Positions 6,928-30,896 are shown, numbered from the stretch's first letter. The stretch: DNA of 64,000 nt from Eubacteriales bacterium (GCA_045543555.1 JAZQMQ010000018.1:10985-74984); one strand, 5' to 3'. The notes: generated by a model from the letters alone, not told the origin. Program-made: numbers and translations.

Positions 6928-7516
6928 CGATGTGTCTTTACCTTATCTATCAGCAAAAACAAGAAAACGCATGCTGATATTCAAGCTGCTTGCCGATATT
7001 TCTTGGGTGTTACATTATTTTTGTCTTGGCTGAATTGCGGGAATGATACCGAATTCCGTCTGTATATTCAAAGAGCTTGTATTCATAAACAGAAAAGACA
7101 AAAAATTGGCTGCGCTGAAAATTTGGCCCGTAGTCTTCATATTTGTAAATTGGATCCTTTACTTTGTCAGACAAAACGACGGTAACAAATGCGGTTTCCT
7201 GACTGTATATGATATCAAGGAAAACACTTGGAATAAGCCCGTCGAGATCGAGGATTGCCAATCCAGAGGAGATTTCATCGTTTATAAGGGTGATCTGTAT
7301 CTGTTCCATGCACCAATAGACCGCGAGCATATCGGAATCGTGAAAATAAATACCGACGATATCTCAAAAATCGAGGTCGTATTGCAGGCGAAGATGCAGA
7401 CAAGCTGCTTTTATCCATTCGTGCAGTATTTTGACGGTGAGCTTGCCATGTCATATACGGTAGCAAGAAAGCACATAAGACTTGCAAGGTTTGATCTTAG
7501 CAAATATATCGTATAA
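6891..7516 (+). pseudogene. Chimeric relic: a YgjV-like membrane protein N-terminus (frameshift plus in-frame TGA) joined to an unrelated beta-rich C-terminal fragment
   Basis: MIHTAQIFGLGATMCLYLIYQQKQ is followed by a frameshift, then MLIFKLLADISWVLHYFCLG, a TGA at 7031-7033, then IAGMIPNSVCIFKELVFINRKDKK.... The sequence then switches to ...FLTVYDIKENTWNKPVEIED...GDLYLFHAPIDREH.... Confidence 0.45.
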
Positions 7517-8032: not shown

Positions 8033-8600
8033 GAAGCTTACGGATTTGCCTAAAAAGGAAGTTGAGGGATGGCTTGATTTTTACAGCGAGATCATAGAAG
8101 ACAAGATCGAAGAGGGTCTGAGCGAAGAAGAGGCTGTAGTGGAAATTGGAGATATAGATGAAATTGCGTCGCAGATAGCAAGCGAAATTCCCCTGACAAA
8201 GTTAGTGAAGGAAAAAGTTAAGCCTAAGCGAAGACTCAGTGGTTGGGGGATCGTTCTTATAATTCTCGGAGCTCCCGTTTGGTTTTCACTTCTTATGGCG
8301 GCATTTGCGGTGATTTTTTCTGTTTATGTTTCAATATGGTCTGTCATCGTGTCGCTTTGGGCGGTAGTTGTCTCCTTAATTGCATCAGCTGTTGCAGGAG
8401 CGATACTCAGTGTAACAGGGTTTGCTGGCGGAATGGCGCTGAATGGCTTTGTAATGCTTTCTGTCGCATTGGTATGCGCAGGGCTTTCTATATTCTCATT
8501 TATCGGAAGTGTGTATTTAACAAAGGGTCTGGTAAAGCTTACTGTTTTAATGATGAGATGGCTTAAGAGGTGCTTTGCAGGAAAGGTGAGTGAGCGGTAA
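7998..8600 (+). CDS. DUF1700-type membrane protein (PadR-associated)
   Basis: MTKRQFILALNEKLTDLPKKEVEGWLDFYSEIIEDKIEEGLSEEEAV is followed by hydrophobic helices. This is the standard gene order after padR. Confidence 0.8.
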   Translation: MTKRQFILALNEKLTDLPKKEVEGWLDFYSEIIEDKIEEGLSEEEAVVEIGDIDEIASQIASEIPLTKLVKEKVKPKRRLSGWGIVLIILGAPVWFSLLMAAFAVIFSVYVSIWSVIVSLWAVVVSLIASAVAGAILSVTGFAGGMALNGFVMLSVALVCAGLSIFSFIGSVYLTKGLVKLTVLMMRWLKRCFAGKVSER

Positions 8601-16851: not shown

Positions 16852-18555
16852 TTATATATTGTTGTCCATCCAGCTCCAACGGTTTACTATAAAGTCACGG
16901 ATATATTGAATATGGGACTGGTAGGTCTTGTATTTTGTAATGCTTTTAGGCTGGGGGCTTACGGCTCTTTTTCCGAGTACGTTCCAAACCTTGAAGTTAT
17001 ATTCTGCACTTACAGAGAGTGTTTTTCCCATTTCGTCAACACAGTACAGTGCTTTTTCAAGAAGATCGTCCTTCGCCTCATCCCAGCGAAGCTTAAGCTT
17101 TGCTTTGAATGCAGGATCTTTCATGAGATAACACATCCAGTTGTCGTCGATATATTCGTGCTTTTGGGAAAGATTTGCCCAGGATGTGTAGTCACCGAAA
17201 TCGTTGTACAGATTACCCATTGCAAGATCGTAATCCCAAATAGGACCCATTTTAAGCAGTCCGCCGCTTTCCTTCATTATGAAGCAACTGCGTCTGAAGC
17301 AGGATTCGAGATTGTAGAAAAGCTCTGTGGATATAAACCAATCGATAAGATAGTCAACGTCGATATAGTTTTCGTAACCGTTTAAGGTTTTGACCGCTGA
17401 ATTTGCTTTTTTTACGTAATCTATAATGAAGTTTGCTTGTTCCTTTATAATTTTATCATCTTCGGGATATTCTATTGAGCAGTAGCGCACAAGGTCGGTG
17501 TGCAATGCGGTAAGACCGTATTGATCGTCGTCTTCAACACCTCCTATTTCTATAAGGAAGGAAGTGTCTGCTTCGCCGTTGTCTTTGGGAAGATCGATTC
17601 TGTTCTCCGAGATGTCTCTGTCCTCCCCTATAGTGTATACACCGATATATACACCGTTCAAAAATACGTTTACGGGGTATTGAGAGAGCGGACAAAGCTC
17701 GTGTGAGAGTACCTTTGAGGTTTCGTGTGCCACGAAATTTCTTATTAGTGAGTAATCAGCGTAGTTTGCAAGAAGTATCCATTTTTTTGCTTCTGCCATG
17801 CCGAGAACTTCGGTCTTATTATAAAATTTAAGCTTGTACGGCTTTTTCGCCCAACCCCAAGTGGAATTTCCTCTTCCTTTTATCTCTGCTCGGGTAGGCT
17901 CAAGTGATGCAAATCCCTCCGGAAGATACCAACCGTTAACGCCTTCGGCATCGATTGTGACCATGGCATCAATATATTCTTCTTTCGAGACAATTCCTTT
18001 TCCTTCTTCGGTGTCTATGCTTATTACAGGAATTACATTACCGCTGTATTCAACTATTATTTCATATTGTTTTGTGAGACCGTCGTTATCGGTCAGCGTG
18101 ATGTAGCAATTGTCTGTCAAATTGACCTTGCCACCATTGTTGGCACTTGAAAATTCGACCGTTGCGGCATCTGCTTCAACGTCAACAATCGCATTTTTCA
18201 GAGTGAATGAGTCTGTTGGAGCAATGACGGTGAAGATTGCTTTACCATCTTCAATAACAGCGGTCAGACTCTCGCACATATTTTTATTTTTGTTTTTATC
18301 GACCGTCAATGAGATAAGAAAGCAGCTTGGCTTCGGTGGCTCGGTTGTTACCTCCTCGGTTGTTGTTATCGCCTCTGTCGTTTCAGCTTCCGTCGTTTCT
18401 TCGGTTTTTGTGGTGGATGACGGAGTGTTTGGCTGGGTTATGGGGGCGGTTTCAGTTTCGGTAAACTTTGGGGCAGAGTTTTTCTCTGCACAGCCTACGG
18501 CAGAAAAAAGCAACGAGACTGAAGCAAGAATTAATGCGATTAGTCGTTTGATCAT
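16852..18555 (-). CDS. CotH-family (spore-coat-kinase-like) lipoprotein with a Thr/Glu-rich linker
   Basis: Lipobox LFSAVGC. The linker is TETETAPITQPNTPSSTTKTEETTEAETTEAITTTEEVTTEPP. CotH blocks KKPYKLKF, LLANYADYSLIRN and GPIWDYDLAMG are present. Confidence 0.8.
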   Translation of the reverse strand: MIKRLIALILASVSLLFSAVGCAEKNSAPKFTETETAPITQPNTPSSTTKTEETTEAETTEAITTTEEVTTEPPKPSCFLISLTVDKNKNKNMCESLTAVIEDGKAIFTVIAPTDSFTLKNAIVDVEADAATVEFSSANNGGKVNLTDNCYITLTDNDGLTKQYEIIVEYSGNVIPVISIDTEEGKGIVSKEEYIDAMVTIDAEGVNGWYLPEGFASLEPTRAEIKGRGNSTWGWAKKPYKLKFYNKTEVLGMAEAKKWILLANYADYSLIRNFVAHETSKVLSHELCPLSQYPVNVFLNGVYIGVYTIGEDRDISENRIDLPKDNGEADTSFLIEIGGVEDDDQYGLTALHTDLVRYCSIEYPEDDKIIKEQANFIIDYVKKANSAVKTLNGYENYIDVDYLIDWFISTELFYNLESCFRRSCFIMKESGGLLKMGPIWDYDLAMGNLYNDFGDYTSWANLSQKHEYIDDNWMCYLMKDPAFKAKLKLRWDEAKDDLLEKALYCVDEMGKTLSVSAEYNFKVWNVLGKRAVSPQPKSITKYKTYQSHIQYIRDFIVNRWSWMDNNI

Positions 18556-19590: not shown

Positions 19591-19619
19591 TTGACAAATG
19601 ATTAAAGATGAGGTAAAAT
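19591..19619 (+). promoter_or_regulatory. Sigma-A promoter of the atypical Opp-like operon, giving a leader of about 160 nt
   Basis: TTGACA at 19591-19596, a 17-nt spacer, TAAAAT at 19614-19619. Confidence 0.65.
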
Positions 19620-19780
19620 GTCAGTAAATCTCTATGCAATTCTACTCCTGGGCTTTTTAACGGCGTGATCGTATCGAAGGCCCTTAAATATTGCATATAT
19701 TATTTTGAATATACGGTGAACACGCTGTTACGTGCCACCTTATATTATAAATTATTATTATGTTTTGGAGGAAACCCAAG

Positions 19781-22003
19781 ATGAAAAGAACCAGACTTCT
19801 GTCTCTTCTTCTTATCGTTTTTCTTGTAGTTGGCGTTCTCGCCGGCTGCTCAGAGAAGAAGGACAAAGGCTACGTTTTCGATCCCGCTGACGTAGTCGCA
19901 CACAAGTCCTACACCTCCGTCTACGATGAAATCGGTTCCAAGATCACCGCAGACATGGTTGTAGAAAAAGACGGTTTTGCTTACGTTACCTATGAGGGCG
20001 TAGAGTATGAGCTTGGTATGGACTTCCTGTCCATGGCTATGGTTTATAACTGCACTCCTAAGGGCAACTTCAAGACCGCTGAAGAGGTTTACAACTTCTG
20101 GTGGAAGCTCTATATGCAGAGATGGAACTATCTCGCTCCTGAGATCCCGCTCTATTCCAACCAGTACTTCGACCTCTACAACGCTAAGATCGAAGGCTTT
20201 GAAACCACTCCTTACTGGAGTGCTGCTGATGCCATCATCAAGGCAACCGTTAAGACTGAAGACAACTCCGTAATTCTCGGCTCTTCTACCGAGCTTTCCG
20301 GCGCTTTCCGTAACTCCAGCTGGGGTAAGTCTTCTCCCGGATCTTCCGACCTCGATATCCAGAACCTCACCTCCGGACACGGCACTGTTCAGACCGGTCC
20401 TGACGGCGCAATGCTTTGGAATATGCAGGCTCTTGCTGCGGTTCCTACCTCTGTTAAGAACGAGGACGGCACTCTCACCTACACCATCAAGGTTAGAAAC
20501 GACCTTAAGTTCTCCGATGGCTCCGCTATCAACGCAAAGAACTACATCGTATCTATCCTTGCTAACTCCACCGCTGTTGCAGTAGCAGCAGGCGGAACCG
20601 GTAACTCCGGTATGCAGATTGTTGGTTATGATGCATTCAAGGGCTATGAAGGCAAGAACGATGGCCAGGCAGTGCTTGACAAGGATGGCAACGCTACCGA
20701 CGTTGTTGCTTCCAAGTACTTCTCCGGCGTTAAGCTTATCGACGACTACACCTTCTCCATCACCTTCCTTGCTGATTACGCAGATTACTACTATGTAATG
20801 TCCTACGCTTCCTACTCTCCCGTTCCTATGGCTCTCTATGCTGGCGAGTACGACATCATCGTAAACGACGACAAGAGCTGCGGTCTTGCTGACGGCTTCT
20901 ATGCTAAGGCAACCAAGGACGGCGTTGAGCAGTACACTATGGCTGAGGTTATCGTCAACAACCTCAAGTGGGATTCCGCTCTTCCTTACTCCGGACCCTA
21001 CGTAGTTAAGAACTACGACGCTGCTAACCTCATCGCTACCCTCGAGCTCAACCCCAACTATCCCGGTGACGACGCTCGTGGCAAGGCTACCATCAAGACC
21101 ATCACCTACGTAAAGATGGTTTCTGAGACTCAGATGGACCAGTTCAAGACCGGTCAGATCGACGTTCTCGCTGGTATCACCGGCGGTGCTGACACCAAGG
21201 CTGCTCTTGCACTCGTTGCTGAGAGCCCCGACAAGTATGCTGAGACTCACTATGACCGTGCAGGTTACGGTAAGCTCGCATTCCGTGGCGACCTCGGTCC
21301 TACCGCTATGGTAGAGGTTCGTCAGGCAATCATGTACACCATCAACCGTCCTGAGTTCGCTCAGAACTTCACCGGCGGTTACGGTTCCGTTGTTCATGGT
21401 CCTTACTACACCGGTATGGCTGCATACAAGGCAAATGAGAGCATTCTCAACCTTAACCCCTACGCATACAGCTCCGACAGCGCTATCGAAGTTCTCGAAG
21501 AGGGCGGTTGGATCTACAATAAGGACGGCTCTGAATACGACGCAGAAAAGGGCGGCGTACGTTACAAGAAGCTTTCCGGCTTCGAGCTCTCCGAGCAGAA
21601 CCTTAAGTACTCCTCTATCGACGGTAAGTACAAGACCGTTAAGGTAGGCGAAGACTTCTATATGCCTCTTGCAATCAACTGGTACGGCACTCAGCCTAAC
21701 GACGTTACCGACCAGCTTATCACTGCATGGCAGAACAACCCCAACGCTACTACCGCAATCGGTATGTACATCACCTACACCAGCTGTGATTTCAACTCCG
21801 GTCTCTACGGTGAGTACCTCCAGATCGAGCAGTACGGTTGGGACGGAGTTGCTAAGTGTGCCGCTATCAACTTCGCTACCGGCTTCACTTCCGCAATCTA
21901 TGATCAGTCTTACTACTGGACTATCAACCAGGATTACTACGCAGACTACTCCAACAACTACATCATGGATGAGGCTGACTTCTGGGAGAACTACACTAAG
22001 TAA
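19781..22003 (+). CDS. Oversized (about 740 aa) family-5 (Opp/Dpp-type) ABC substrate-binding lipoprotein
   Basis: GGAGG lies 8 nt upstream of the ATG at 19781. Lipobox VLAGC. Family-5 SBP character is seen, for example FSDGSAINAKNYI. The protein is about 200 aa longer than typical OppA/DppA. Confidence 0.8.
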   Translation: MKRTRLLSLLLIVFLVVGVLAGCSEKKDKGYVFDPADVVAHKSYTSVYDEIGSKITADMVVEKDGFAYVTYEGVEYELGMDFLSMAMVYNCTPKGNFKTAEEVYNFWWKLYMQRWNYLAPEIPLYSNQYFDLYNAKIEGFETTPYWSAADAIIKATVKTEDNSVILGSSTELSGAFRNSSWGKSSPGSSDLDIQNLTSGHGTVQTGPDGAMLWNMQALAAVPTSVKNEDGTLTYTIKVRNDLKFSDGSAINAKNYIVSILANSTAVAVAAGGTGNSGMQIVGYDAFKGYEGKNDGQAVLDKDGNATDVVASKYFSGVKLIDDYTFSITFLADYADYYYVMSYASYSPVPMALYAGEYDIIVNDDKSCGLADGFYAKATKDGVEQYTMAEVIVNNLKWDSALPYSGPYVVKNYDAANLIATLELNPNYPGDDARGKATIKTITYVKMVSETQMDQFKTGQIDVLAGITGGADTKAALALVAESPDKYAETHYDRAGYGKLAFRGDLGPTAMVEVRQAIMYTINRPEFAQNFTGGYGSVVHGPYYTGMAAYKANESILNLNPYAYSSDSAIEVLEEGGWIYNKDGSEYDAEKGGVRYKKLSGFELSEQNLKYSSIDGKYKTVKVGEDFYMPLAINWYGTQPNDVTDQLITAWQNNPNATTAIGMYITYTSCDFNSGLYGEYLQIEQYGWDGVAKCAAINFATGFTSAIYDQSYYWTINQDYYADYSNNYIMDEADFWENYTK

Positions 22004-22036
22004 TTTCTTCCACAACTGAAATATCAGTGAACTAAA

Positions 22037-22083
22037 TATAGGAAGGGCGTTGAAAAATGCCCTTCCTATACCGCTTTTTTTGT
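22037..22083 (+). terminator. Intra-operon hairpin (partial terminator or mRNA-stabilising stem) after the SBP gene
   Basis: A 12-bp stem, tataggaagggc/gcccttcctata, is followed 4 nt later by tttttttt. Confidence 0.6.
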
Positions 22084-22150
22084 TTTTTACAATTTTATTT
22101 GATTATATCTGGATCGGCCTTGTATAAGGCCAAGAAATTGGAGGATTCCG

Positions 22151-23173
22151 ATGGGCAAATATATGTTGAAGAGAATGGTATATATTGTTCTCGTCTTCTT
22201 TATCCTCTCGTTCCTGCTGTTCATGATTTACAATATGGTTCCCGGTGCGGACAAGTCTTATGAGTATGCAAAAGCAGAATGGCAAGTTAATAAGCAGCTC
22301 GATCTTGATGAACGTGTTGCGTATTGGCAGGAAAAATTAGGAACGAACGGTACTAAATTTGAAAGATATCTCCGTTGGATCGGAGTTTACCCCTATAAAA
22401 ACGGCTCATTTAATGGAATACTGCAGGGAAATTTCGGAACTTCAACGAAATTTGCCAAGCCAGTAATTGAAGTTATAAAGGAGCCGATGGAAAATACGAT
22501 ATTTATTAATATTTTTGCTACTATTCTCGCACTCGGTATCACTATACCGCTCGGCATCTTCTGTGCTGTCAAGCGCGGAAGCAAGCGAGACGTAGGAGTG
22601 CAGGTCGGTACTATCGTAGGCTACAGTTTGCCGATTTTTATTATTGCGATAGTGTTCATATGGGTGTTTGCGGTGTTACTGGGCTGGTTCCCGGTATCGG
22701 GTATGCAAAACGCAAATTATCTTAGCTGGCCTAAGTGGAAGCAGTTCCTTGATAAGATGTATCATCTGTCACTTCCCCTTATCGTTATGACCTTTACGTC
22801 TCTGGGCGGTATGACACGTTTTGTCCGTGCATCCATGATCGAGGCTCTTTCCATGGACTGTATCCGTACCGCACGTGCAAAGGGCTTAAGAGAAAAGGTA
22901 GTTATCTATACTCATGCGTTCCGCAATGCGCTTCTTCCCATTACTACCCTTATTATCGGATGGTTCCTCGGAATTTTCGGCGGATCAATGATGATCGAAA
23001 ATATTTTTGCTCTTAACGGTATAGGTAAAATCTATTATGATGCTCTTCAAGCTTCTGATAATGAACTTGTACTCGGTCTTCAGCTGTTCTACATAACCAT
23101 CGCACTTGTCGGTAATCTTCTTATCGATATCGCGTACGGTCTTGTAGACCCGCGTGTTCGTGTCAATAAGTAA
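22151..23173 (+). CDS. OppB/DppB-type ABC permease
   Basis: Starts MLKRMVYIVLVFFILSF. Also carries the BPD_transp_1 core ...CIRTARAKGLREKVVIYTHAFRNALLP.... Confidence 0.85.
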   Translation: MGKYMLKRMVYIVLVFFILSFLLFMIYNMVPGADKSYEYAKAEWQVNKQLDLDERVAYWQEKLGTNGTKFERYLRWIGVYPYKNGSFNGILQGNFGTSTKFAKPVIEVIKEPMENTIFINIFATILALGITIPLGIFCAVKRGSKRDVGVQVGTIVGYSLPIFIIAIVFIWVFAVLLGWFPVSGMQNANYLSWPKWKQFLDKMYHLSLPLIVMTFTSLGGMTRFVRASMIEALSMDCIRTARAKGLREKVVIYTHAFRNALLPITTLIIGWFLGIFGGSMMIENIFALNGIGKIYYDALQASDNELVLGLQLFYITIALVGNLLIDIAYGLVDPRVRVNK

Positions 23174-23187
23174 GGAGGCAGTATAAT

Positions 23188-25146
23188 ATGAAAAACGAAA
23201 ACAAAAATACTGCCAAAAAGAACGGCATCTTCTCAACTATCAAGCGTTGGGGCAGACGTATGTTCTTCGGCGCAAGCAACGAGATGTCAAAGGACGTTCT
23301 TTTCGTTGAAAAGATTGAAAGCCCGTCCGTTATGGCTGTTAAGGCATTCTTCCGCAGAAAGCTGGCAGTTGGAGCTCTTGTGGTGCTTGTTTCCTTGTTC
23401 CTTCTTGTATTCATCGGACCGCTCGTTATGCCGATGGATCTTAACTATGAGGATCCCCTTCAGGCAAACATTGCGCCTACGCTTTCTATGCTTGATGTTC
23501 CTAAGGCAGTTAAAAATGACGTTAAAACTATCACTGGATTTTCTAACTTCACAATAGGACTCAATAATTCCGGTAAGGTATACCTTTGGGGTAATACCAA
23601 TGATGCACTTTCCAACGTTGATTTTTCCGATATTCCCGATGAAGTAAAGAACGGTAAGGTCGCTTATATCGCATCGGGTTCCGACCACATTATTGCAATT
23701 ACCGAGGATGGAAAGATCATCGGTTGGGGTGATAATACCGTTGGTCAGTACGGATATGTGAAGAATGAAAACGATCCGTACATTCAGATGCCAAGCGAGT
23801 TTATAGAAGGCACAATTGATGCATCTAAGGTCGATCAGCTTATCTGCGGCTTCCAAGCAACAGGTCTTATTGTCGACGGACAGCTGCATATGTGGGGAAA
23901 CACAAATGCACTTCTCAGCTTGAAGGAATATTCCGAAGGCAAACTTCCTAGCGAGGGTGTTAAGAAGGTTGCTTTCTCAAACTATTATGCGCTTCTTCTT
24001 ATGGAGGACGGAACCGTAACAGGCGGTACTACACTGTCCCTTAATCAGACTGGATATTCCAGCACTGAAGGCAAGATTAAGAATCTCGGTGCTTATCTTG
24101 AGGGAAAGACTGTAGTTGATATTGCTGCTACAAACAACTGCTATTCTTTGGTAATGGCAGACGGAAGCGTTATCGTGTTCGGAAGCTTTCAGTACGGCGA
24201 AACTGATTTCCCGAAATTCGCAAACGGCGAAAAGGTTGTATCCGTTACCTCAGGTACACGTCACTTTGCTGTAATCACCGATAAGGGTCTGGCTTACACT
24301 TGGGGTCACAATGACCACGGTCAGGCAAGCCTCAAGGGTGTTCCCGCATCCGAAGTATATTGCGGATCCAAGCAGACCTATATTGTGAATGAAAACGACG
24401 ATGTAACCGCAAAGGCAGGTCTTAAGGGCTACCTTATGGGCACCGATAACCGCGGAAGAGATGTTCTTACACGTATCATCCACGGCGGTAAGATGACTAT
24501 GACGGTCGGTGCTGTTTCGGTTATTGTTTCGACGATTATTGCTATTATTGTTGGATGTATTTCCGGATATTTCGGTGGTTGGGTCGATATGCTTCTGATG
24601 CGTGTTACCGAGATTTGCTCATCTATTCCTTTCCTGCCGTTTGCAATGATGCTTTCATATGTACTTAATACAACAGATTTGAGTAATTACGGAGATCAGG
24701 ATAAAATCAGGATATTTATCATAATGATAATACTCGGACTCCTTTCTTGGCCGGGTCTTGCAAGAATGATTCGTGCACAGGTGCTTGCAGAGCGTGAAAA
24801 GGAATTCGTGGTTGCAGCTAAGTCAATGGGTGTTAAGGAAAGCAAGATCGCATTCAAGCACATCCTGCCTAACGTTATTTCGATAATTCTCGTTAACGTT
24901 ACTCTCGATTTCGCAGGTTGTATGCTTACCGAGTCCTCGCTTTCTTATCTCGGATTCGGCGTTCAGCTTCCTCAGCCTACTTGGGGTAATATGCTTAATG
25001 GTGCTAAAAACAGCCTTGTTATCCAGAATTATTGGTGGCAGTGGGTATTCCCGGCAATCTTCCTTGCAATTGCAACCATCTGTATCAACATTATAGGCGA
25101 TACGCTCCGTGACGTCTTCGACCCCAAGAGCAGCAGTGAAAGATAA
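23188..25146 (+). CDS. OppC/DppC-type ABC permease with a roughly 310-aa RCC1-like beta-propeller inserted in the first extracytoplasmic loop
   Basis: TM1 covers residues 59-81. Residues of about 100-410 contain six or seven repeats of the type GKVYLWGN, GKIIGWGDNTVGQYG, GQLHMWGN, GSVIVFGSFQYGE, GLAYTWGHNDHGQ. The canonical LMGTDNRGRDVLTRIIHG motif and permease core follow. Confidence 0.8.
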   Translation: MKNENKNTAKKNGIFSTIKRWGRRMFFGASNEMSKDVLFVEKIESPSVMAVKAFFRRKLAVGALVVLVSLFLLVFIGPLVMPMDLNYEDPLQANIAPTLSMLDVPKAVKNDVKTITGFSNFTIGLNNSGKVYLWGNTNDALSNVDFSDIPDEVKNGKVAYIASGSDHIIAITEDGKIIGWGDNTVGQYGYVKNENDPYIQMPSEFIEGTIDASKVDQLICGFQATGLIVDGQLHMWGNTNALLSLKEYSEGKLPSEGVKKVAFSNYYALLLMEDGTVTGGTTLSLNQTGYSSTEGKIKNLGAYLEGKTVVDIAATNNCYSLVMADGSVIVFGSFQYGETDFPKFANGEKVVSVTSGTRHFAVITDKGLAYTWGHNDHGQASLKGVPASEVYCGSKQTYIVNENDDVTAKAGLKGYLMGTDNRGRDVLTRIIHGGKMTMTVGAVSVIVSTIIAIIVGCISGYFGGWVDMLLMRVTEICSSIPFLPFAMMLSYVLNTTDLSNYGDQDKIRIFIIMIILGLLSWPGLARMIRAQVLAEREKEFVVAAKSMGVKESKIAFKHILPNVISIILVNVTLDFAGCMLTESSLSYLGFGVQLPQPTWGNMLNGAKNSLVIQNYWWQWVFPAIFLAIATICINIIGDTLRDVFDPKSSSER

Positions 25147-25166
25147 AGAGGTGGAAGGAGAAAACT

Positions 25167-26186
25167 ATGGCACTTTTAGAAGTAAAAAACCTTCATACCT
25201 TCTTTAAAACAAGAAAAGGTATTGTAAAGGCTGTAAACGACGTTTCTTATTCTCTCGAATCCGGAAAAACCATCGGTATCGTTGGCGAGTCGGGCTCGGG
25301 TAAGAGCGTTTCGGCAATGAGTATCCTTCAACTTCTCGACGGAAATGGCTACATTGCCGACGGAGAGATCATTTTCGAGGGCACAGACTTAACAAAGCTC
25401 ACCCAGGATCAGATGTACGATATCAGAGGTAACAAGATATCCGTCATCTTCCAGGAGCCTATGACGAGCTTGAACCCCGTTTTTAGCGTTAAAAAACAGC
25501 TCAGCGAGCCTTTTATGATCCATCAGAAGATGAAAAAGAAGGAAGCTGAGGCAAAGGCTCTTGAAATGCTCTATGCAGTTCAGATCCCCAATCCCGAGCA
25601 GGTAATGAGACAGTATCCTCATCAGCTTTCGGGCGGTATGCGTCAGAGAGTTATGATAGCTATGGCGCTTGCATGCAGACCTAAGATCCTTATCGCCGAT
25701 GAGCCCACTACCGCTCTCGACGTTACGATTCAGGCTCAGGTGCTTCGTCTGATGAATGATCTTCAGAGAGAAAACGGCACTTCAATTATATTCATAACAC
25801 ACGACCTCGGCGTAATCAACGAGATGGCTGACGACGTCGTTGTTATGTACTGCGGTCAGGTTGTCGAGCAGACCTCCGCAAGAACTATTTTCACGAACTG
25901 TCCCGTAAGCCATCCTTACACGGAAGGACTTATGTACAGTATTCCGAGAATAGACAATATTACCGAAAAGCTCGAACCCATTCCGGGTGTTGTTCCTCAT
26001 CCTCTGGCACTTCCCAAGGGATGCAAATTCGCGCCCAGATGTAAATATGCAACGCAAAAATGTCTTGAAGAGGAGCCTCCGTTGCTTGAGGTAAATCCCG
26101 GACAGAAGGTTCGTTGTTTCTATCCCGATAAGGAGGTGCGAAACAGTGTCGAACACCAACAAACTGTTGTCAATAACAAACCTTAA
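25167..26186 (+). CDS. OppD/DppD-type ABC ATP-binding protein
   Basis: Walker A GESGSGKS, signature LSGGMRQR, Walker B LIADEPTTALD. The C-terminal oligo_HPY motif has CKFAPRC. Confidence 0.9.
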   Translation: MALLEVKNLHTFFKTRKGIVKAVNDVSYSLESGKTIGIVGESGSGKSVSAMSILQLLDGNGYIADGEIIFEGTDLTKLTQDQMYDIRGNKISVIFQEPMTSLNPVFSVKKQLSEPFMIHQKMKKKEAEAKALEMLYAVQIPNPEQVMRQYPHQLSGGMRQRVMIAMALACRPKILIADEPTTALDVTIQAQVLRLMNDLQRENGTSIIFITHDLGVINEMADDVVVMYCGQVVEQTSARTIFTNCPVSHPYTEGLMYSIPRIDNITEKLEPIPGVVPHPLALPKGCKFAPRCKYATQKCLEEEPPLLEVNPGQKVRCFYPDKEVRNSVEHQQTVVNNKP

Positions 26187-27795
26187 AAAGTATTTCCCGA
26201 TAGCAAAGAGCCACATTTTTCAGAAAAATCAGCTCTACGTAAGAGCTAACGAGGAAATTACCATAGACATTATGCAGGGTGAGACCTTCGGACTTGTCGG
26301 TGAATCGGGTTGCGGTAAATCCACTCTCGGAAGAACCGTGCTCCAGCTTTACGATCAGACCGCGGGAAGCACAATGTACTACGGACGTACTGTTGCAGAT
26401 CTTGCCCCTAAGTACGTCGAAAAAACATTGAAAAATGCTCCCAAAATGATCGCGCTCTATCACAAGGCGCAGAAAAAGGCAGACGATCTTGCAACGCAGT
26501 GTGAGGAGCTCGGCGACAACGCTACGTTCTTCCAGCTTCAGAACAAGAACCTTGCAGCTGCAGAGGCTGAAACGGCTTTCAATAACGTTGTTAAGATCCT
26601 CGGCGGATTTGCTGCTCTTGACGATTGCCGTACAGGAGCTGACCTTCTTCTTAAGAAGTACAAGACCGACGTTGCTATCGCTAAGCTCAACGAGAAGATC
26701 AGACTTGTTGACAATGAGATCGATTTCTGCGAAGCTTCTGTAAAAGAGCTTAAAAATTCTGCGGACAGAGTTAAAGCAGAGAAGAAGATTCATTCATTTA
26801 ATGCAAAGAAAACGAAGTTCGTTGCTAAGAAGAAAAAGCTCTCATCGGAAATGGATAACCTGCTTAAGGTCCTTGATGCTGACAATGCCGCAATCGATGC
26901 GCTCAAGTCTCAGCACGTAGGTGATGAGAAGTTTGACGAATACGAAAAGCATCTCGACACAGGCCTTGATTTGAGCCGTCTTAAGTATTCCGAAATGAGA
27001 CTTCTCCGCAAGGACGTTCAGATCATTTTCCAGGATCCTTATTCTTCGCTTAACCCCCGTATGACTGTCGGTCAGATAATCGAGGAAGGACTTGTAACAC
27101 ATAAGTACTTCAAGCACGGTTCTCCTCAGATGAAGGAATACATCATCGAGATCATGCGGCGTTGCGGACTTCAGGATTATATGATCCACCGTTATCCTCA
27201 CCAGTTCTCAGGCGGTCAGCGACAGAGAATCTGTATCGCGAGAGCTTTGGCTGTTAAGCCTCAGTTCATCGTATGCGACGAGTGCGTTTCCGCTCTTGAC
27301 GTTTCCATTCAGTCTCAGATCATTAACCTCCTTGAAGAACTCAAGGAAAAGGATAATCTCACATACCTCTTCATTTCCCACGACCTTTCTGTCGTAAGAT
27401 ACATTTCCGACCGTATTGGTGTTATGTATCTTGGAAATATGGTAGAGCTCGGAACTGCAGAAACAATATTCAAGGATCCCAGACATCCTTATACTGTTGC
27501 ACTTCTTTCCTCCATACCCACAACCGATATGGAGAGCTTGACCAAGGAGCGTATTATCCTTGAGGGTAATATCCCCAGCCCGATCAAGCCCCCGGAGGGA
27601 TGTAAGTTCCACACACGTTGCTACATGGCTTGTGATAAGTGTAAGAGAGTTCCTCCTCCTTATGTTGAGGTTGATCCCGGACACTTTGTTGCTTGTCACT
27701 TCCTCGATAAGAAGATTGATGAGAACGGTAACTATCTCTTTGATGTTCCCACAAGAACCAGAAACACTAGAGTAACTGAGCCTGATCAGGAGTAA
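26146..27795 (+). CDS. OppF/DppF-type ABC ATP-binding protein with a roughly 195-aa predicted coiled-coil insertion
   Basis: A GTG start follows AGGAGG. Walker [10 protein letters not shown] is at residues 52-60. A long K/E/A/L-rich segment covers residues of about 86-280. Then come [22 protein letters not shown] and [11 protein letters not shown]. Confidence 0.85.
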
Positions 27796-28011: not shown

Positions 28012-28017
28012 TAATTT

Positions 28018-28051
28018 ATCGCCGCTTGATATACAAGCGGCGATATTTTTA
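28018..28051 (+). terminator. Rho-independent terminator ending the ABC operon
   Basis: An 11-bp stem, atcgccgcttg/caagcggcgat, is followed by attttta. Confidence 0.8.
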
Positions 28052-28113: not shown

Positions 28114-28680
28114 ATGATAAAGGTTGCTTTACTTGGTGATTCCATCAGACAGATCGGATACGGAAACGCAGTTTGTGAGCTTTTAGGTGACGAATACAGC
28201 GTATTTCAGCCCAACGATAATTGCAGATTTGTAAAATATACGCTTCGCTGTGTTTTGCATGAATGGAGATCTTCTCTTGAGGAAAGCGACGTTATCCATT
28301 GGAATAACGGACTTTGGGATATTTGCAACCTTGGTGACGGAGTTTTTACGACGTACGAAGAATATAGAGAAAATATGTTAAGGGTTGCTACGGCGCTCAA
28401 AAAATATGGAAAAGCAGTTATTTTTGCAACGACCACACCTGTAAGAGACGGGCATCCGTACAATTCTAATGATGTAATAAAGGAATATAATGATCGTATT
28501 GTTCCGGAGCTGATAAATATGGGTATCATTATTAATGACCTTCATAAGACAGTGGTTGCAGATGTCAATAAATATATTCTCGAAAGCGATATGATACATC
28601 TATCTGAAGAAGGTATTAATGCTTGCGCAACTCAGGTTGCAGAAATCATCAGAGCAACAGTAAAGGACGCTAGAAAGTGA
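28114..28680 (+). CDS. SGNH/GDSL-family hydrolase
   Basis: Block I LLGDSI, block III NNGLWD, block V DMIHLS. Confidence 0.8.
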   Translation: MIKVALLGDSIRQIGYGNAVCELLGDEYSVFQPNDNCRFVKYTLRCVLHEWRSSLEESDVIHWNNGLWDICNLGDGVFTTYEEYRENMLRVATALKKYGKAVIFATTTPVRDGHPYNSNDVIKEYNDRIVPELINMGIIINDLHKTVVADVNKYILESDMIHLSEEGINACATQVAEIIRATVKDARK

Positions 28681-28689
28681 GAAAAAGCA

Positions 28690-29337
28690 ATGAACTTGGG
28701 TAATGTAGTCATATTCGGAGACAGCTATTCAACCTATGCTGGCTGTATCCCGGAGGGATATGCCCACTACTACGGCAGAGAAGATACCGAAGGCTGCGGC
28801 GTTAAGAACGCCGATATGACCTGGTGGCGTATGCTGATAAATGAATGCGAGGGCAATCTGCTCTTAAACGACAGCTGGTCGGGATCAACTGTTGGCTATA
28901 CGGGTTATAATGGAGATTGCTCAAAGACCAATTCCTTTATATTCCGCCTTCAGAGGCTTATTGAAAACGGCTTCTTTGAAGACAACAAAATCGATACTAT
29001 TCTCGTTTTTGGCGGCACTAACGACAACTGGGCTAACGCTCCCGTGGGTGAGGTTAAGGCAGGTGACATTGAATGGGACGAGCGCTTCCTTGTGCTTCCC
29101 GCGTTCTGTCACTTTGCGTCACTTCTTAAAAAGTGCGCTCCCTCCGCACGCGTTATCTTTATTGTAAATACCGATCTCAAACCAGAGGTTGAGCAGGGAA
29201 TTATCCGCGCAGGTAAGCTTTACGGCTATGAGAGTGTTCTTCTTTCCGACATCGATAAATATTCGGGACATCCTACTGATCTCGGCATGGTGCAGATAAA
29301 GGATCAGATAAAGGATCAGATAAAGGCGGTACTCTGA
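28690..29337 (+). CDS. SGNH-like hydrolase (second paralogue type)
   Basis: FGDSYS, SWSGS, GGTNDN and GHPT blocks are present. The C-terminus contains a QIKD tandem repeat. Confidence 0.7.
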   Translation: MNLGNVVIFGDSYSTYAGCIPEGYAHYYGREDTEGCGVKNADMTWWRMLINECEGNLLLNDSWSGSTVGYTGYNGDCSKTNSFIFRLQRLIENGFFEDNKIDTILVFGGTNDNWANAPVGEVKAGDIEWDERFLVLPAFCHFASLLKKCAPSARVIFIVNTDLKPEVEQGIIRAGKLYGYESVLLSDIDKYSGHPTDLGMVQIKDQIKDQIKAVL

Positions 29338-29984
29338 TGGTAAGATTTATTATAGTGCGCCACGGGTATAGTGTGACAAATAAAGTACAAATGTTCGCAG
29401 GACATCTTGATGCCGAGCTTGACGAGATAGGCTATACTCAGGCACAGTATCTGAAGAACTACATCTGCTCAAATTATCATATCGACAGCATATATTCAAG
29501 TGACTTAAGAAGAGCGGTTGACACCGTGCGCCCCATTGCCGACGAGCTTGGACTTGAAATAAAGACCGAAAGCGGAATCAGAGAGCTTGATGTGGGAGAG
29601 TGGAAGGGCCTTTTAACTTCGGAGGTTGCGGAGAGATACCCAGAATCCTATGCAGTATTCCTCAAGGATGTTGGTAACGCTCATCCCGAGGGTGGAGAGA
29701 GCTATTCCGACCTTGCTGAGAGGACGGATGAAGCATTCAGGCGCATAGCAGCTGAAAACGAAGGCAAAACGGTTCTTGTCGCAACCCACGGCGGTGTAAT
29801 AAGAGTCCTTCGTTGCCTTTGGGATGGCTACTGCGTAACTCATGCTCAGGTGCTCCCCCACGTTGCTAACGCTTCTGTTTCCGTTGCAGAATATGATAAT
29901 GGCAAATTCAACTTTGTATCCGTCGGATATGCCGGTCACTTAAACGATAATGTCAGCCAAAAAGATGTAAAACAACTTTTTTAA
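29337..29984 (+). CDS. Histidine phosphatase family protein (phosphoglycerate-mutase-like)
   Basis: The RHG motif appears in IIVRHGYSVTN, and ATHGGVIR appears later. Confidence 0.8.
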   Translation: MVRFIIVRHGYSVTNKVQMFAGHLDAELDEIGYTQAQYLKNYICSNYHIDSIYSSDLRRAVDTVRPIADELGLEIKTESGIRELDVGEWKGLLTSEVAERYPESYAVFLKDVGNAHPEGGESYSDLAERTDEAFRRIAAENEGKTVLVATHGGVIRVLRCLWDGYCVTHAQVLPHVANASVSVAEYDNGKFNFVSVGYAGHLNDNVSQKDVKQLF

Positions 29985-30141: not shown

Positions 30142-30807
30142 TTATTGACCAATAAGTTCAAAACGATTGCGTTTACTTTTTATCAGTCCTTCGTTGCAAA
30201 GCTTGCTTATTTCATTGCTTAATCCGCTTCGGTCAACTCCAAGATAATCGGCAAGCTCCTGACGGTCAAAGGGGATGACAAAAATGTTGCTTCCTGCTTT
30301 TTTTGATTGAATGCTGAGATACTTAAGAAGCTTTTCTCTTGTGGTTTTTCCTGATGTAATTTCAATGCGCTGATGGAGAATAATATTTTGTGTGGCGATG
30401 TCCTTCATTAAATTAAAAATTAATTGATGATGAAATCCGCATGCGTTTGAACAGGTATGAAGTATATGAGAGCATTCAATGAACATAACGTAGCTAGGCT
30501 CGTCTGCAATGACTGAAAAAGGGAGCTTTTTTATATCGGAGGCTGCAAATGCCTCGCAAAAGGTTTGTGAGGGAAGAACCTCGGAGAGAATTATACGATT
30601 CCCGTCGTAATCAAGAGAGGTAACGTGAAGTACACCGGATAAAACTATACCAATGTGACGTGCGCGGTTGCCCTCTGCCATCACGGTATATTTTTTGTCG
30701 AAAAAATCCACCCTTGCGCCGAGACAATTAAGCATTTTTAAAAGCATATCTCGCTCAATACCTAAAAAAAGAGGACAATTTTTTAAAATATCAAAATATT
30801 TTTCCAT
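30142..30807 (-). CDS. Crp/Fnr-family transcriptional regulator
   Basis: A cNMP-binding-like N-terminus and a C-terminal HTH, RQELADYLGVDRSGLSNEISKL. The start is placed at the ATG at 30807, which has GGAG upstream, because the longer ORF would include the palindromic operator. Confidence 0.85.
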   Translation of the reverse strand: MEKYFDILKNCPLFLGIERDMLLKMLNCLGARVDFFDKKYTVMAEGNRARHIGIVLSGVLHVTSLDYDGNRIILSEVLPSQTFCEAFAASDIKKLPFSVIADEPSYVMFIECSHILHTCSNACGFHHQLIFNLMKDIATQNIILHQRIEITSGKTTREKLLKYLSIQSKKAGSNIFVIPFDRQELADYLGVDRSGLSNEISKLCNEGLIKSKRNRFELIGQ

Positions 30808-30820
30808 ACTTTTCTCCATT

Positions 30821-30836
30821 TGTTGAAAATTCAACA
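30821..30836. promoter_or_regulatory. Perfect 16-bp palindrome TGTTGAAAATTCAACA, a candidate Crp/Fnr-family box in the divergent promoter region
   Basis: It has the 5-6-5 architecture of TGTGA-N6-TCACA-type sites. It is centred about 41.5 nt upstream of the TSS predicted from TATAAT at 30858-30863. Confidence 0.55.
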
Positions 30837-30896
30837 TACATATCATTTGTATTATACTATAATTAGTTCAGAAAATCAAGGAGAAACAAAAAGTTT

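Follow-up and report, generated by a model that had tools for sequence, protein, structure and literature searches.

A lineage-specific, predicted helical domain inserted between Walker A and the Q-loop of an OppF-type ATPase from uncultured gut Clostridia

The oppF gene and the boundaries of its insertion

The stretch of DNA analysed here (hereafter the window: 64,000 nt of Eubacteriales bacterium, GCA_045543555.1, JAZQMQ010000018.1:10985-74984, in which all positions are counted from the first letter) carries a five-gene operon (19760-27795) for an Opp/Dpp-type ATP-binding cassette (ABC) importer. The last gene of this operon, oppF, encodes an ATPase that is interrupted between Walker A and the Q-loop by an additional domain, predicted to be helical, which canonical OppF and DppF proteins do not possess (Table 1). 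Few protein modules are as uniform as the nucleotide-binding domains (NBDs) of ABC importers, whose accessory regulation is normally C-terminal, as in MalK and MetN. What is new here is a lineage-specific helical insertion in OppF; the insertion site itself has already been used independently in Mollicutes.

The window protein belongs to the OppF/DppF family without being an equivalog of its E. coli members. Pfam ABC_tran matches it at 97.3 bits (cut-off 25), with the match split into two stretches, and oligo_HPY (PF08352) matches its C-terminus at 67.3 bits (cut-off 27.1). The top NCBIfam models are those of OppF and DppF, and the scores stay below the respective cut-offs for the OppF equivalog NF011659 (361 vs 540), the DppF-like subfamily NF008453 (358 vs 408) and the DppF equivalog NF043071 (307 vs 660). 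Among Protein Data Bank (PDB) entries, the sequence matches 8z21_D and 8z1v_D, and the full AlphaFold2 model matches both as well, leaving the insertion as a gap. Homologues keep the N-terminus of the window protein and are listed in databases under generic names ('ATP-binding cassette domain-containing protein', 'peptide/nickel transport system ATP-binding protein'). The 5' end of oppF overlaps oppD by 41 nt (26146-26186), with an overlap of similar size in related loci, suggesting that the two ATPases are translationally coupled.

Since all ATPase motifs are intact, including the catalytic Glu of Walker B, OppF looks fully competent catalytically, as far as its motifs can tell. Four cysteines of the C-terminal domain (C486, C492, C499 and C517) are spaced 6/7/18, compared with 6/7/17 for C293, C299, C306 and C323, the [4Fe-4S] ligands in the C-terminal domain of E. 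coli DppF (PMC12136057), and are by this likeness putative ligands of such a cluster.

The first-pass annotation, made from the DNA alone, had proposed an insertion of about 195 aa between Walker A and the Q-loop. The motif positions on which it relied were correct (Walker A at residues 52-60, the Q-loop block from 291, a G-rich segment at 151-167), and the insertion is indeed present, albeit somewhat shorter. Alignments with canonical OppF/DppF place the insertion point at residues ~86-88 / 273: those with OppF, DppF and Rv1281c from the PDB cover residues 7-88 and start again at 273; the neighbouring canonical OppD aligns with the same gap (ending at ~86-88 and restarting at 273); and in the NCBIfam OppF profile, residues 3-86 of the window protein correspond to profile positions 7-91, and residues 273-520 to positions 85-331. 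Because the canonical alignments break at ~86-88 and resume at 273, the insertion amounts to ~185 aa. It lies between the post-Walker-A beta-hairpin and the short helix and strand leading into the Q-loop, and thereby interrupts the antiparallel-beta subdomain of the NBD.

The insertion is, as had been noted before, rich in K, E, A, L and D and nearly free of proline (K 16%, A 13.5%, L 11%, D 9%, E 7.6% and P 1.1%, with P at 5.2% in the rest of OppF). It is flanked by GRTVADL (26383-26403) and GLDLSRL (26962-26982), so that a G-x-[DT]-[LV]-x-x-L pattern stands at both ends, and both segments align to one and the same segment of canonical Rv1281c (residues 422-428). This short duplicated boundary may reflect the way in which the insertion came about.

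Predicted structure of the inserted domain

In the full-length AlphaFold2 model, residues 81-270 were predicted with a per-residue confidence score (pLDDT) of 84-97. A second run, restricted to residues 76-294, reached a mean pLDDT of 87.5 and a predicted template modelling score (pTM) of 0.76, and returned the same helices, h0-h5 and 281-290. According to these models, the domain would fold into four long helices arranged in two hairpins, the second of which is formed by h3 (~42 residues) and h4 (~48 residues). The a and d heptad positions are hydrophobic in 7/8 cases in h1, 7/8 in h2, 8/12 in h3 and 10/14 in h4. The earlier idea of a helical hairpin arm is therefore retained in part: the segment is predicted to be folded, helical and heptad-patterned, but the model has four helices instead of a single two-helix arm.

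The G-rich break in the middle of the insertion, previously taken for the hairpin turn of such an arm, finds a different place in the two-hairpin model. Its GGF triplet, which connects h2 and h3, is invariant, as are the segments of chain entry and chain exit, and on this ground we infer that it lies at the base of the domain beside the NBD and not at a distal tip. The pattern suggests that chain entry, the GGF turn and chain exit come together at this base, in which case the turns at ~126 and 204-207 would lie at the far end, with the h3/h4 hairpin jutting out as a tip of variable sequence and conserved length.

A Foldseek search of the PDB with the insertion-only model retrieved no significant structural neighbour (best E-value 0.13, TM-score at most 0.44). 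The weak, non-significant fold matches were mostly BAR domains, alpha-pore-forming toxins and pieces of SMC arms.

Conservation and distribution

Proteins of the same build are widespread in uncultured gut Clostridia. More than 120 protein clusters, with lengths of 537-570 aa, matched the window OppF at 74-91% identity over 96-100% of its length, and a scan of one genome per species located insertion-bearing oppF genes at 46 loci. All 46 belong to metagenome-assembled genomes (MAGs) of uncultured gut Clostridia, obtained in many studies from human and herbivore guts and labelled as Oscillospiraceae, Faecousia, Flemingiibacterium, 'Lachnospiraceae', Christensenellaceae or Eubacteriales.

We compared these 46 species-level loci together with the window gene. 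In this main subfamily, oppF is intact in 47/47 genes, and the insertion measures 178-186 aa, being exactly 185 aa long in 30 of the 47. Conservation is distributed unevenly along the protein. The NBD core has a mean pairwise identity of 86-89%; the h0-h2 part has 67%, with a length of 73 aa in 45/47 genes; and the exit link plus pre-Q-loop helix has 74%, with a 14-aa link in every gene. The h3-h4 part has a mean of 38% and a minimum of 12%, and its length stays within 91-99 aa. Hairpin 2 is thus variable in sequence yet constant in length, as coiled-coil spacers are. Within h2, the polar positions Q132, N135, E140 and T143 are conserved or invariant.

The same conserved elements recur in divergent subfamilies whose insertions are 19-37% identical to that of the window: the P, Y and T of AP.YV..T, the GGF turn and F..YE...D are invariant or nearly so, the conserved form of the exit segment being F..YE...D.G. 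No DNA repeats were found in the region other than chance matches or those between the paralogues oppD and oppF, and an hhalign comparison of hairpin 1 with hairpin 2 as an internal duplication gave a probability of 2%. The insertion is maintained by selection and is neither a misassembly nor a disordered linker.

In the divergent subfamily, oppF is broken in several assemblies. At one locus (L048, ~7480-7490), an in-frame TAG replaces the Gln codon of HQFSGGQ; at another (L047, ~8230-8260), a deletion of ~117 nt with a frameshift removes the pre-Q helix and the Q-loop; and P0144, P0147 and P0157 carry frameshifts at other positions. These cases may stem from decay of the gene, from assembly errors caused by mixed strains or from another source. 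Another insertion-bearing protein, P0136 (445 aa), keeps Walker A, while its Q-loop (LQLIASDAVS), signature (QLTDEQ) and Walker B (LVVLDQ) are degenerate; it may be a non-catalytic paralogue that has retained the arm.

Searches for relatives of the insertion

A phmmer search with the insertion by itself, run exhaustively over 1.84 billion representative proteins, yielded 29 matches. Save for one false match to a repeat protein, those inspected were N-terminal pieces of OppF with the insertion at the same place, and the domain therefore appears to be confined to this OppF lineage, which comprises several deep subfamilies. A profile search with the insertion likewise returned only ABC_tran proteins or fragments; its matches were short fragments that missed the full-length family, which makes them unfit as a family count.

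When the insertion by itself was compared with Pfam, NCBIfam and PADLOC, no match rose above threshold, and what appeared was coiled-coil noise (GrpE, tropomyosin, Rad50/SMC-related models, JetC and LmuB), and an insertion profile compared with PDB sequences retrieved only generic coiled coils (GCN4 fusions and tropomyosin). In the literature, we found no paper on this OppF insertion, nor on an RCC1-bearing OppC or other RCC1-bearing ABC permeases.

The operon and its RCC1-bearing permease

The other four genes of the operon encode the partners expected of an Opp/Dpp importer, two of them in unusual form. In OppC, an RCC1-repeat beta-propeller of ~300 aa (residues ~100-400) is placed between the first transmembrane segment (TM1) and the GTD..GRD motif that precedes TM2; because of the positive-inside rule for the TM1-TM2 loop, this propeller is predicted to be extracellular. 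In the substrate-binding lipoprotein, SBP_bac_5 spans only residues 230-627, leaving an N-terminal extension of ~200 aa and a C-terminal one of ~120 aa; a stem-loop lies 3' of its gene (22037-22070). OppD, the partner ATPase, is canonical and 81-92% identical across genera.

Wherever the sequence of a related locus reaches far enough upstream, it shows these five genes in the same order and the RCC1 segment, and this gene order and an RCC1-bearing OppC recur at two loci of one divergent subfamily (insertion identity 24-28%). In the structure of E. coli DppBCDF, DppC contacts DppF and DppB contacts DppD (PMC12136057). By homology, OppC would be the membrane partner of OppF, which would put the propeller and the arm on the same half of the transporter. 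None of the neighbouring genes examined points to a substrate.

Table 1. Features of the oppF locus in the window (nucleotide positions, with residues of the encoded protein where applicable)
Feature	Position	Strand	Basis
CotH-kinase-like protein	16852-18555	-	
Promoter-like site upstream of the operon, 11/12 consensus positions	19591-19619	+	Consensus match only
Family-5 substrate-binding lipoprotein, oversized, 747 aa	19760-22003	+	Pfam; lipobox LAGC read from sequence
OppB permease, 340 aa	22151-23173	+	Pfam
OppC permease with RCC1 propeller, 652 aa	23188-25146	+	Pfam, NCBIfam
OppD, canonical partner ATPase without insertion, 339 aa	25167-26186	+	Pfam, NCBIfam, alignment
oppF, OppF/DppF-type ABC ATPase gene, 549 aa, GTG start	26146-27795	+	Pfam, NCBIfam and PDB matches
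Walker A GESGCGKST, residues 52-60	26299-26325	+	Motif reading
Inserted domain, predicted helical, residues 88-272, ~185 aa	26407-26961	+	Gap in all canonical alignments; AlphaFold2
Entry helix h0, residues 88-96, AP.YV..T motif	26407-26433	+	Subfamily alignment; AlphaFold2
Hairpin 1: h1 (98-125) and h2 (128-157)	26437-26616	+	AlphaFold2; conservation
GGF turn between h2 and h3, residues 153-155, invariant	26602-26610	+	Subfamily and species alignments
Hairpin 2: h3 (162-203) and h4 (208-255)	26629-26910	+	AlphaFold2; variable sequence, conserved length, generic coiled-coil character
Exit helix h5 (261-267) and link to 272, F..YE...D motif	26926-26961	+	AlphaFold2; conservation
Pre-Q-loop helix (281-290) and Q-loop block (291-304, nt 27016-27057; Gln296)	26986-27057	+	Canonical
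Signature FSGGQRQR (354-361), Walker B FIVCDE (374-379), H-loop SHDL (411-414, His412)	27205-27387	+	Canonical
C-terminal oligo_HPY domain with Cys486/492/499/517	27442-27696	+	Pfam; Cys spacing
Terminator-like hairpin after oppF, closing the operon, 12 bp stem and T run	28017-28045	+	Consensus match only
GDSL-like hydrolase	28690-29337		
Histidine phosphatase	29337-29984		
Crp/Fnr-type regulator	30142-30846	-	

Discussion

We regard it as highly probable that the window protein is the OppF of a lineage-specific, elaborated Opp/Dpp-type (PepT-family) importer of uncultured gut Clostridia, with the anatomy described above. ATPases of this PepT family energize the uptake of peptides (or of nickel or opines). 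What the insertion does is a more delicate matter. Our tentative proposal, to which we would give somewhat less than even odds, is that it serves as a cytoplasmic docking or regulatory arm. Taken as a whole, with identity, anatomy and this function blended into one figure, the explanation has in our estimate a probability of about 0.5.

In mechanistic terms, the conserved elements would form a base packed on the NBD, from which the variable hairpin 2 would project into the cytoplasm on the OppC-OppF half of the transporter. At either end, the arm would be fastened to strands of the sheet beside the bound nucleotide, and it would stand immediately ahead of the Q-loop strand. Being tied to these strands, its pose could follow the ATP-driven movement or rotation of the NBD subdomains, and a partner bound to the arm could either gate the ATPase activity or read out the transport state. 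The conserved polar surface on h2 speaks for such a role.

Several points weigh against a docking or regulatory role. No partner, ligand or phenotype is known, and the genes downstream of the operon are not conserved in related loci (the three that were compared, at 28114-29984, are absent from the loci of relatives) and hence suggest no cytoplasmic partner. The net charge of the insertion varies from -7 to +10 across the family; since charge is not conserved, no simple electrostatic target is implied, and the idea that basic residues kept across the family might point to binding of membranes or nucleic acids was rejected. The co-occurrence of the arm with an RCC1-bearing OppC may reflect only the common descent of one operon lineage. 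On the structural side, the NBD core was predicted poorly in the full-length AlphaFold2 model (pLDDT 43-68 for residues 1-80), possibly because the alignment used for that run was shallow and of low diversity, and the packing of the four helices, like the orientation of the arm towards membrane and OppD, is tentative.

An extension of the docking proposal, to which we attach only a small chance, would combine the OppF arm with the OppC propeller into a transmembrane docking or signalling module on the C-F half of the transporter, with a partner recruited or released according to nucleotide and transport state. If this were true, the transporter would double as a sensor or an assembly platform, and the insertions at the same site in Mollicutes might be convergent solutions to the same task.

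The main rival to a docking or regulatory arm is a structural one, namely that the domain is an embellishment which braces the OppD-OppF dimer, the C-terminal [4Fe-4S] domains or the cytoplasmic face of OppC, and so stabilizes an unusually large and asymmetric complex with no external partner involved. The high conservation of the base elements would fit such a brace, as would the unusual conservation of the ATPases, OppD above all, and the want of a conserved partner gene nearby; moreover, accessory C-terminal domains are known to be needed for the stability of Opp/Dpp complexes (PMC12136057). A hairpin of ~90 residues that holds its length while its sequence drifts as far as that of h3-h4 is, however, unlike a tightly packed element, and canonical OppF assembles without any insertion. 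On balance, we consider a purely structural role unlikely, if still the strongest of the alternatives.

The chance is slim that the domain is an oligomerization module, in which the long hairpins of two OppF molecules would pair, joining two transporters or clustering them in the membrane. The weak, generic coiled-coil matches of hairpin 2 and the kinds of fold that Foldseek listed are what such a module might produce, but those fold matches were not significant, the AlphaFold2 monomer is confidently antiparallel within one chain, and there is no direct evidence of self-association.

Far less probable is an arm of the SMC/Rad50 or ABC-F kind (the analogy drawn in the first-pass annotation) that would have diverted OppF from transport to DNA or the ribosome. 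It can draw on a sub-threshold Pfam SMC_N match of the whole protein (25.8 vs a cut-off of 40) and on sub-threshold Rad50, SMC-related and JetC matches of hairpin 2 or of its counterpart in a divergent subfamily. Nonetheless, both analogies fail because the arms of these proteins leave the NBD after the Q-loop, between it and the signature, whereas the window insertion precedes the Q-loop. In addition, OppF has helices of only 28-48 residues with neither hinge nor zinc hook, a single NBD and not a tandem pair, an insertion charge that is not conserved, a C-terminal oligo_HPY domain with its four Cys retained, and a place in a complete importer operon with overlapping oppD and oppF.

Finally, an artefact in the form of a mis-assembled duplication, a chimeric contig or a disordered low-complexity linker, which the biased composition and nothing else would favour, and the first and last of which had been named as ways in which the insertion might prove spurious, is refuted by the lack of DNA repeats or internal duplication, by the recurrence of the domain in more than 120 clusters and 46 independent MAGs, and by the confident helical prediction.

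A helical domain in the beta subdomain, beside the nucleotide, implies that this site tolerates large functional insertions, for which Mollicutes provide an independent precedent. The domain also marks a distinct, uncharacterized Opp-like system, found widely among uncultured Oscillospiraceae of the gut. Should the arm bind a partner or gate the ATPase, it would link an importer to processes in the cytoplasm in a novel way; should it be only a brace, it would be a lineage-specific curiosity.

Comparison with known systems

Compared with canonical OppF and DppF (E. coli 8z21_D and 8z1v_D; M. tuberculosis Rv1281c OppD, 8j5q_D), the window OppF has all of the ATPase motifs, the oligo_HPY domain with its four Cys, and an operon with OppB, OppC, OppD and a family-5 binding protein, and its core aligns with theirs over residues 3-86 and 273-525. 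Unlike the canonical systems, it has ~185 extra residues, an OppC with an RCC1 propeller and a binding protein of 747 aa.

In SMC and Rad50 proteins, the coiled coil exits the NBD after the Q-loop and re-enters it before the signature, running for hundreds of residues to a hinge or a zinc hook. With these proteins and RecN, the window OppF shares an NBD interrupted by antiparallel helical hairpins whose distal part is variable in sequence and constant in length. It differs from them in that the insertion precedes the Q-loop (residues 88-272 vs Gln296), the helices are short, no CxxC hook is found in the protein, and the protein belongs to a membrane importer. ABC-F proteins consist of two tandem NBDs joined by a linker, and their arm belongs to the helical subdomain of NBD1, where it follows the Q-loop. 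The likeness is that of a helical hairpin arm protruding from an NBD, which ABC-F proteins use for contact with the ribosome; the window OppF, in contrast, has one NBD, carries its insertion in the beta subdomain, and has membrane partners and an importer operon.

The closest parallel is offered by Mollicutes. An arm at this position had been called unusual for an importer NBD, which it is, but not without precedent. The Mollicutes OppD model NF043079 (MMSYN1_0167, 561 positions; Mycoplasma mycoides/JCVI-syn) has a large insertion at the same site: residues 3-74 of canonical OppD correspond to positions 1-72 of the model, and residues 80-322 to positions 297-537, so that ~224 profile positions are inserted. 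NF043078 (MMSYN1_0168, 649 positions) describes a further oversized NBD of a Mollicutes Opp ATPase, and the OppF of Mycoplasma synoviae, with 797 aa, is predicted to be mostly alpha-helical (PMC7456371). The window OppF scores far below the cut-offs of both models (245 vs 740 for NF043079 and 289 vs 800 for NF043078), and the insertion alone matches neither of them even at E-values up to 10. Homology between the two insertions was rejected, as no sequence similarity is detectable. The lineages are different, too, and NF043079 carries its insertion in OppD, whereas the OppD of the window is canonical. Judged from these sequence comparisons, the insertions in gut Clostridia and in Mollicutes look like independent uses of the same permissive site.

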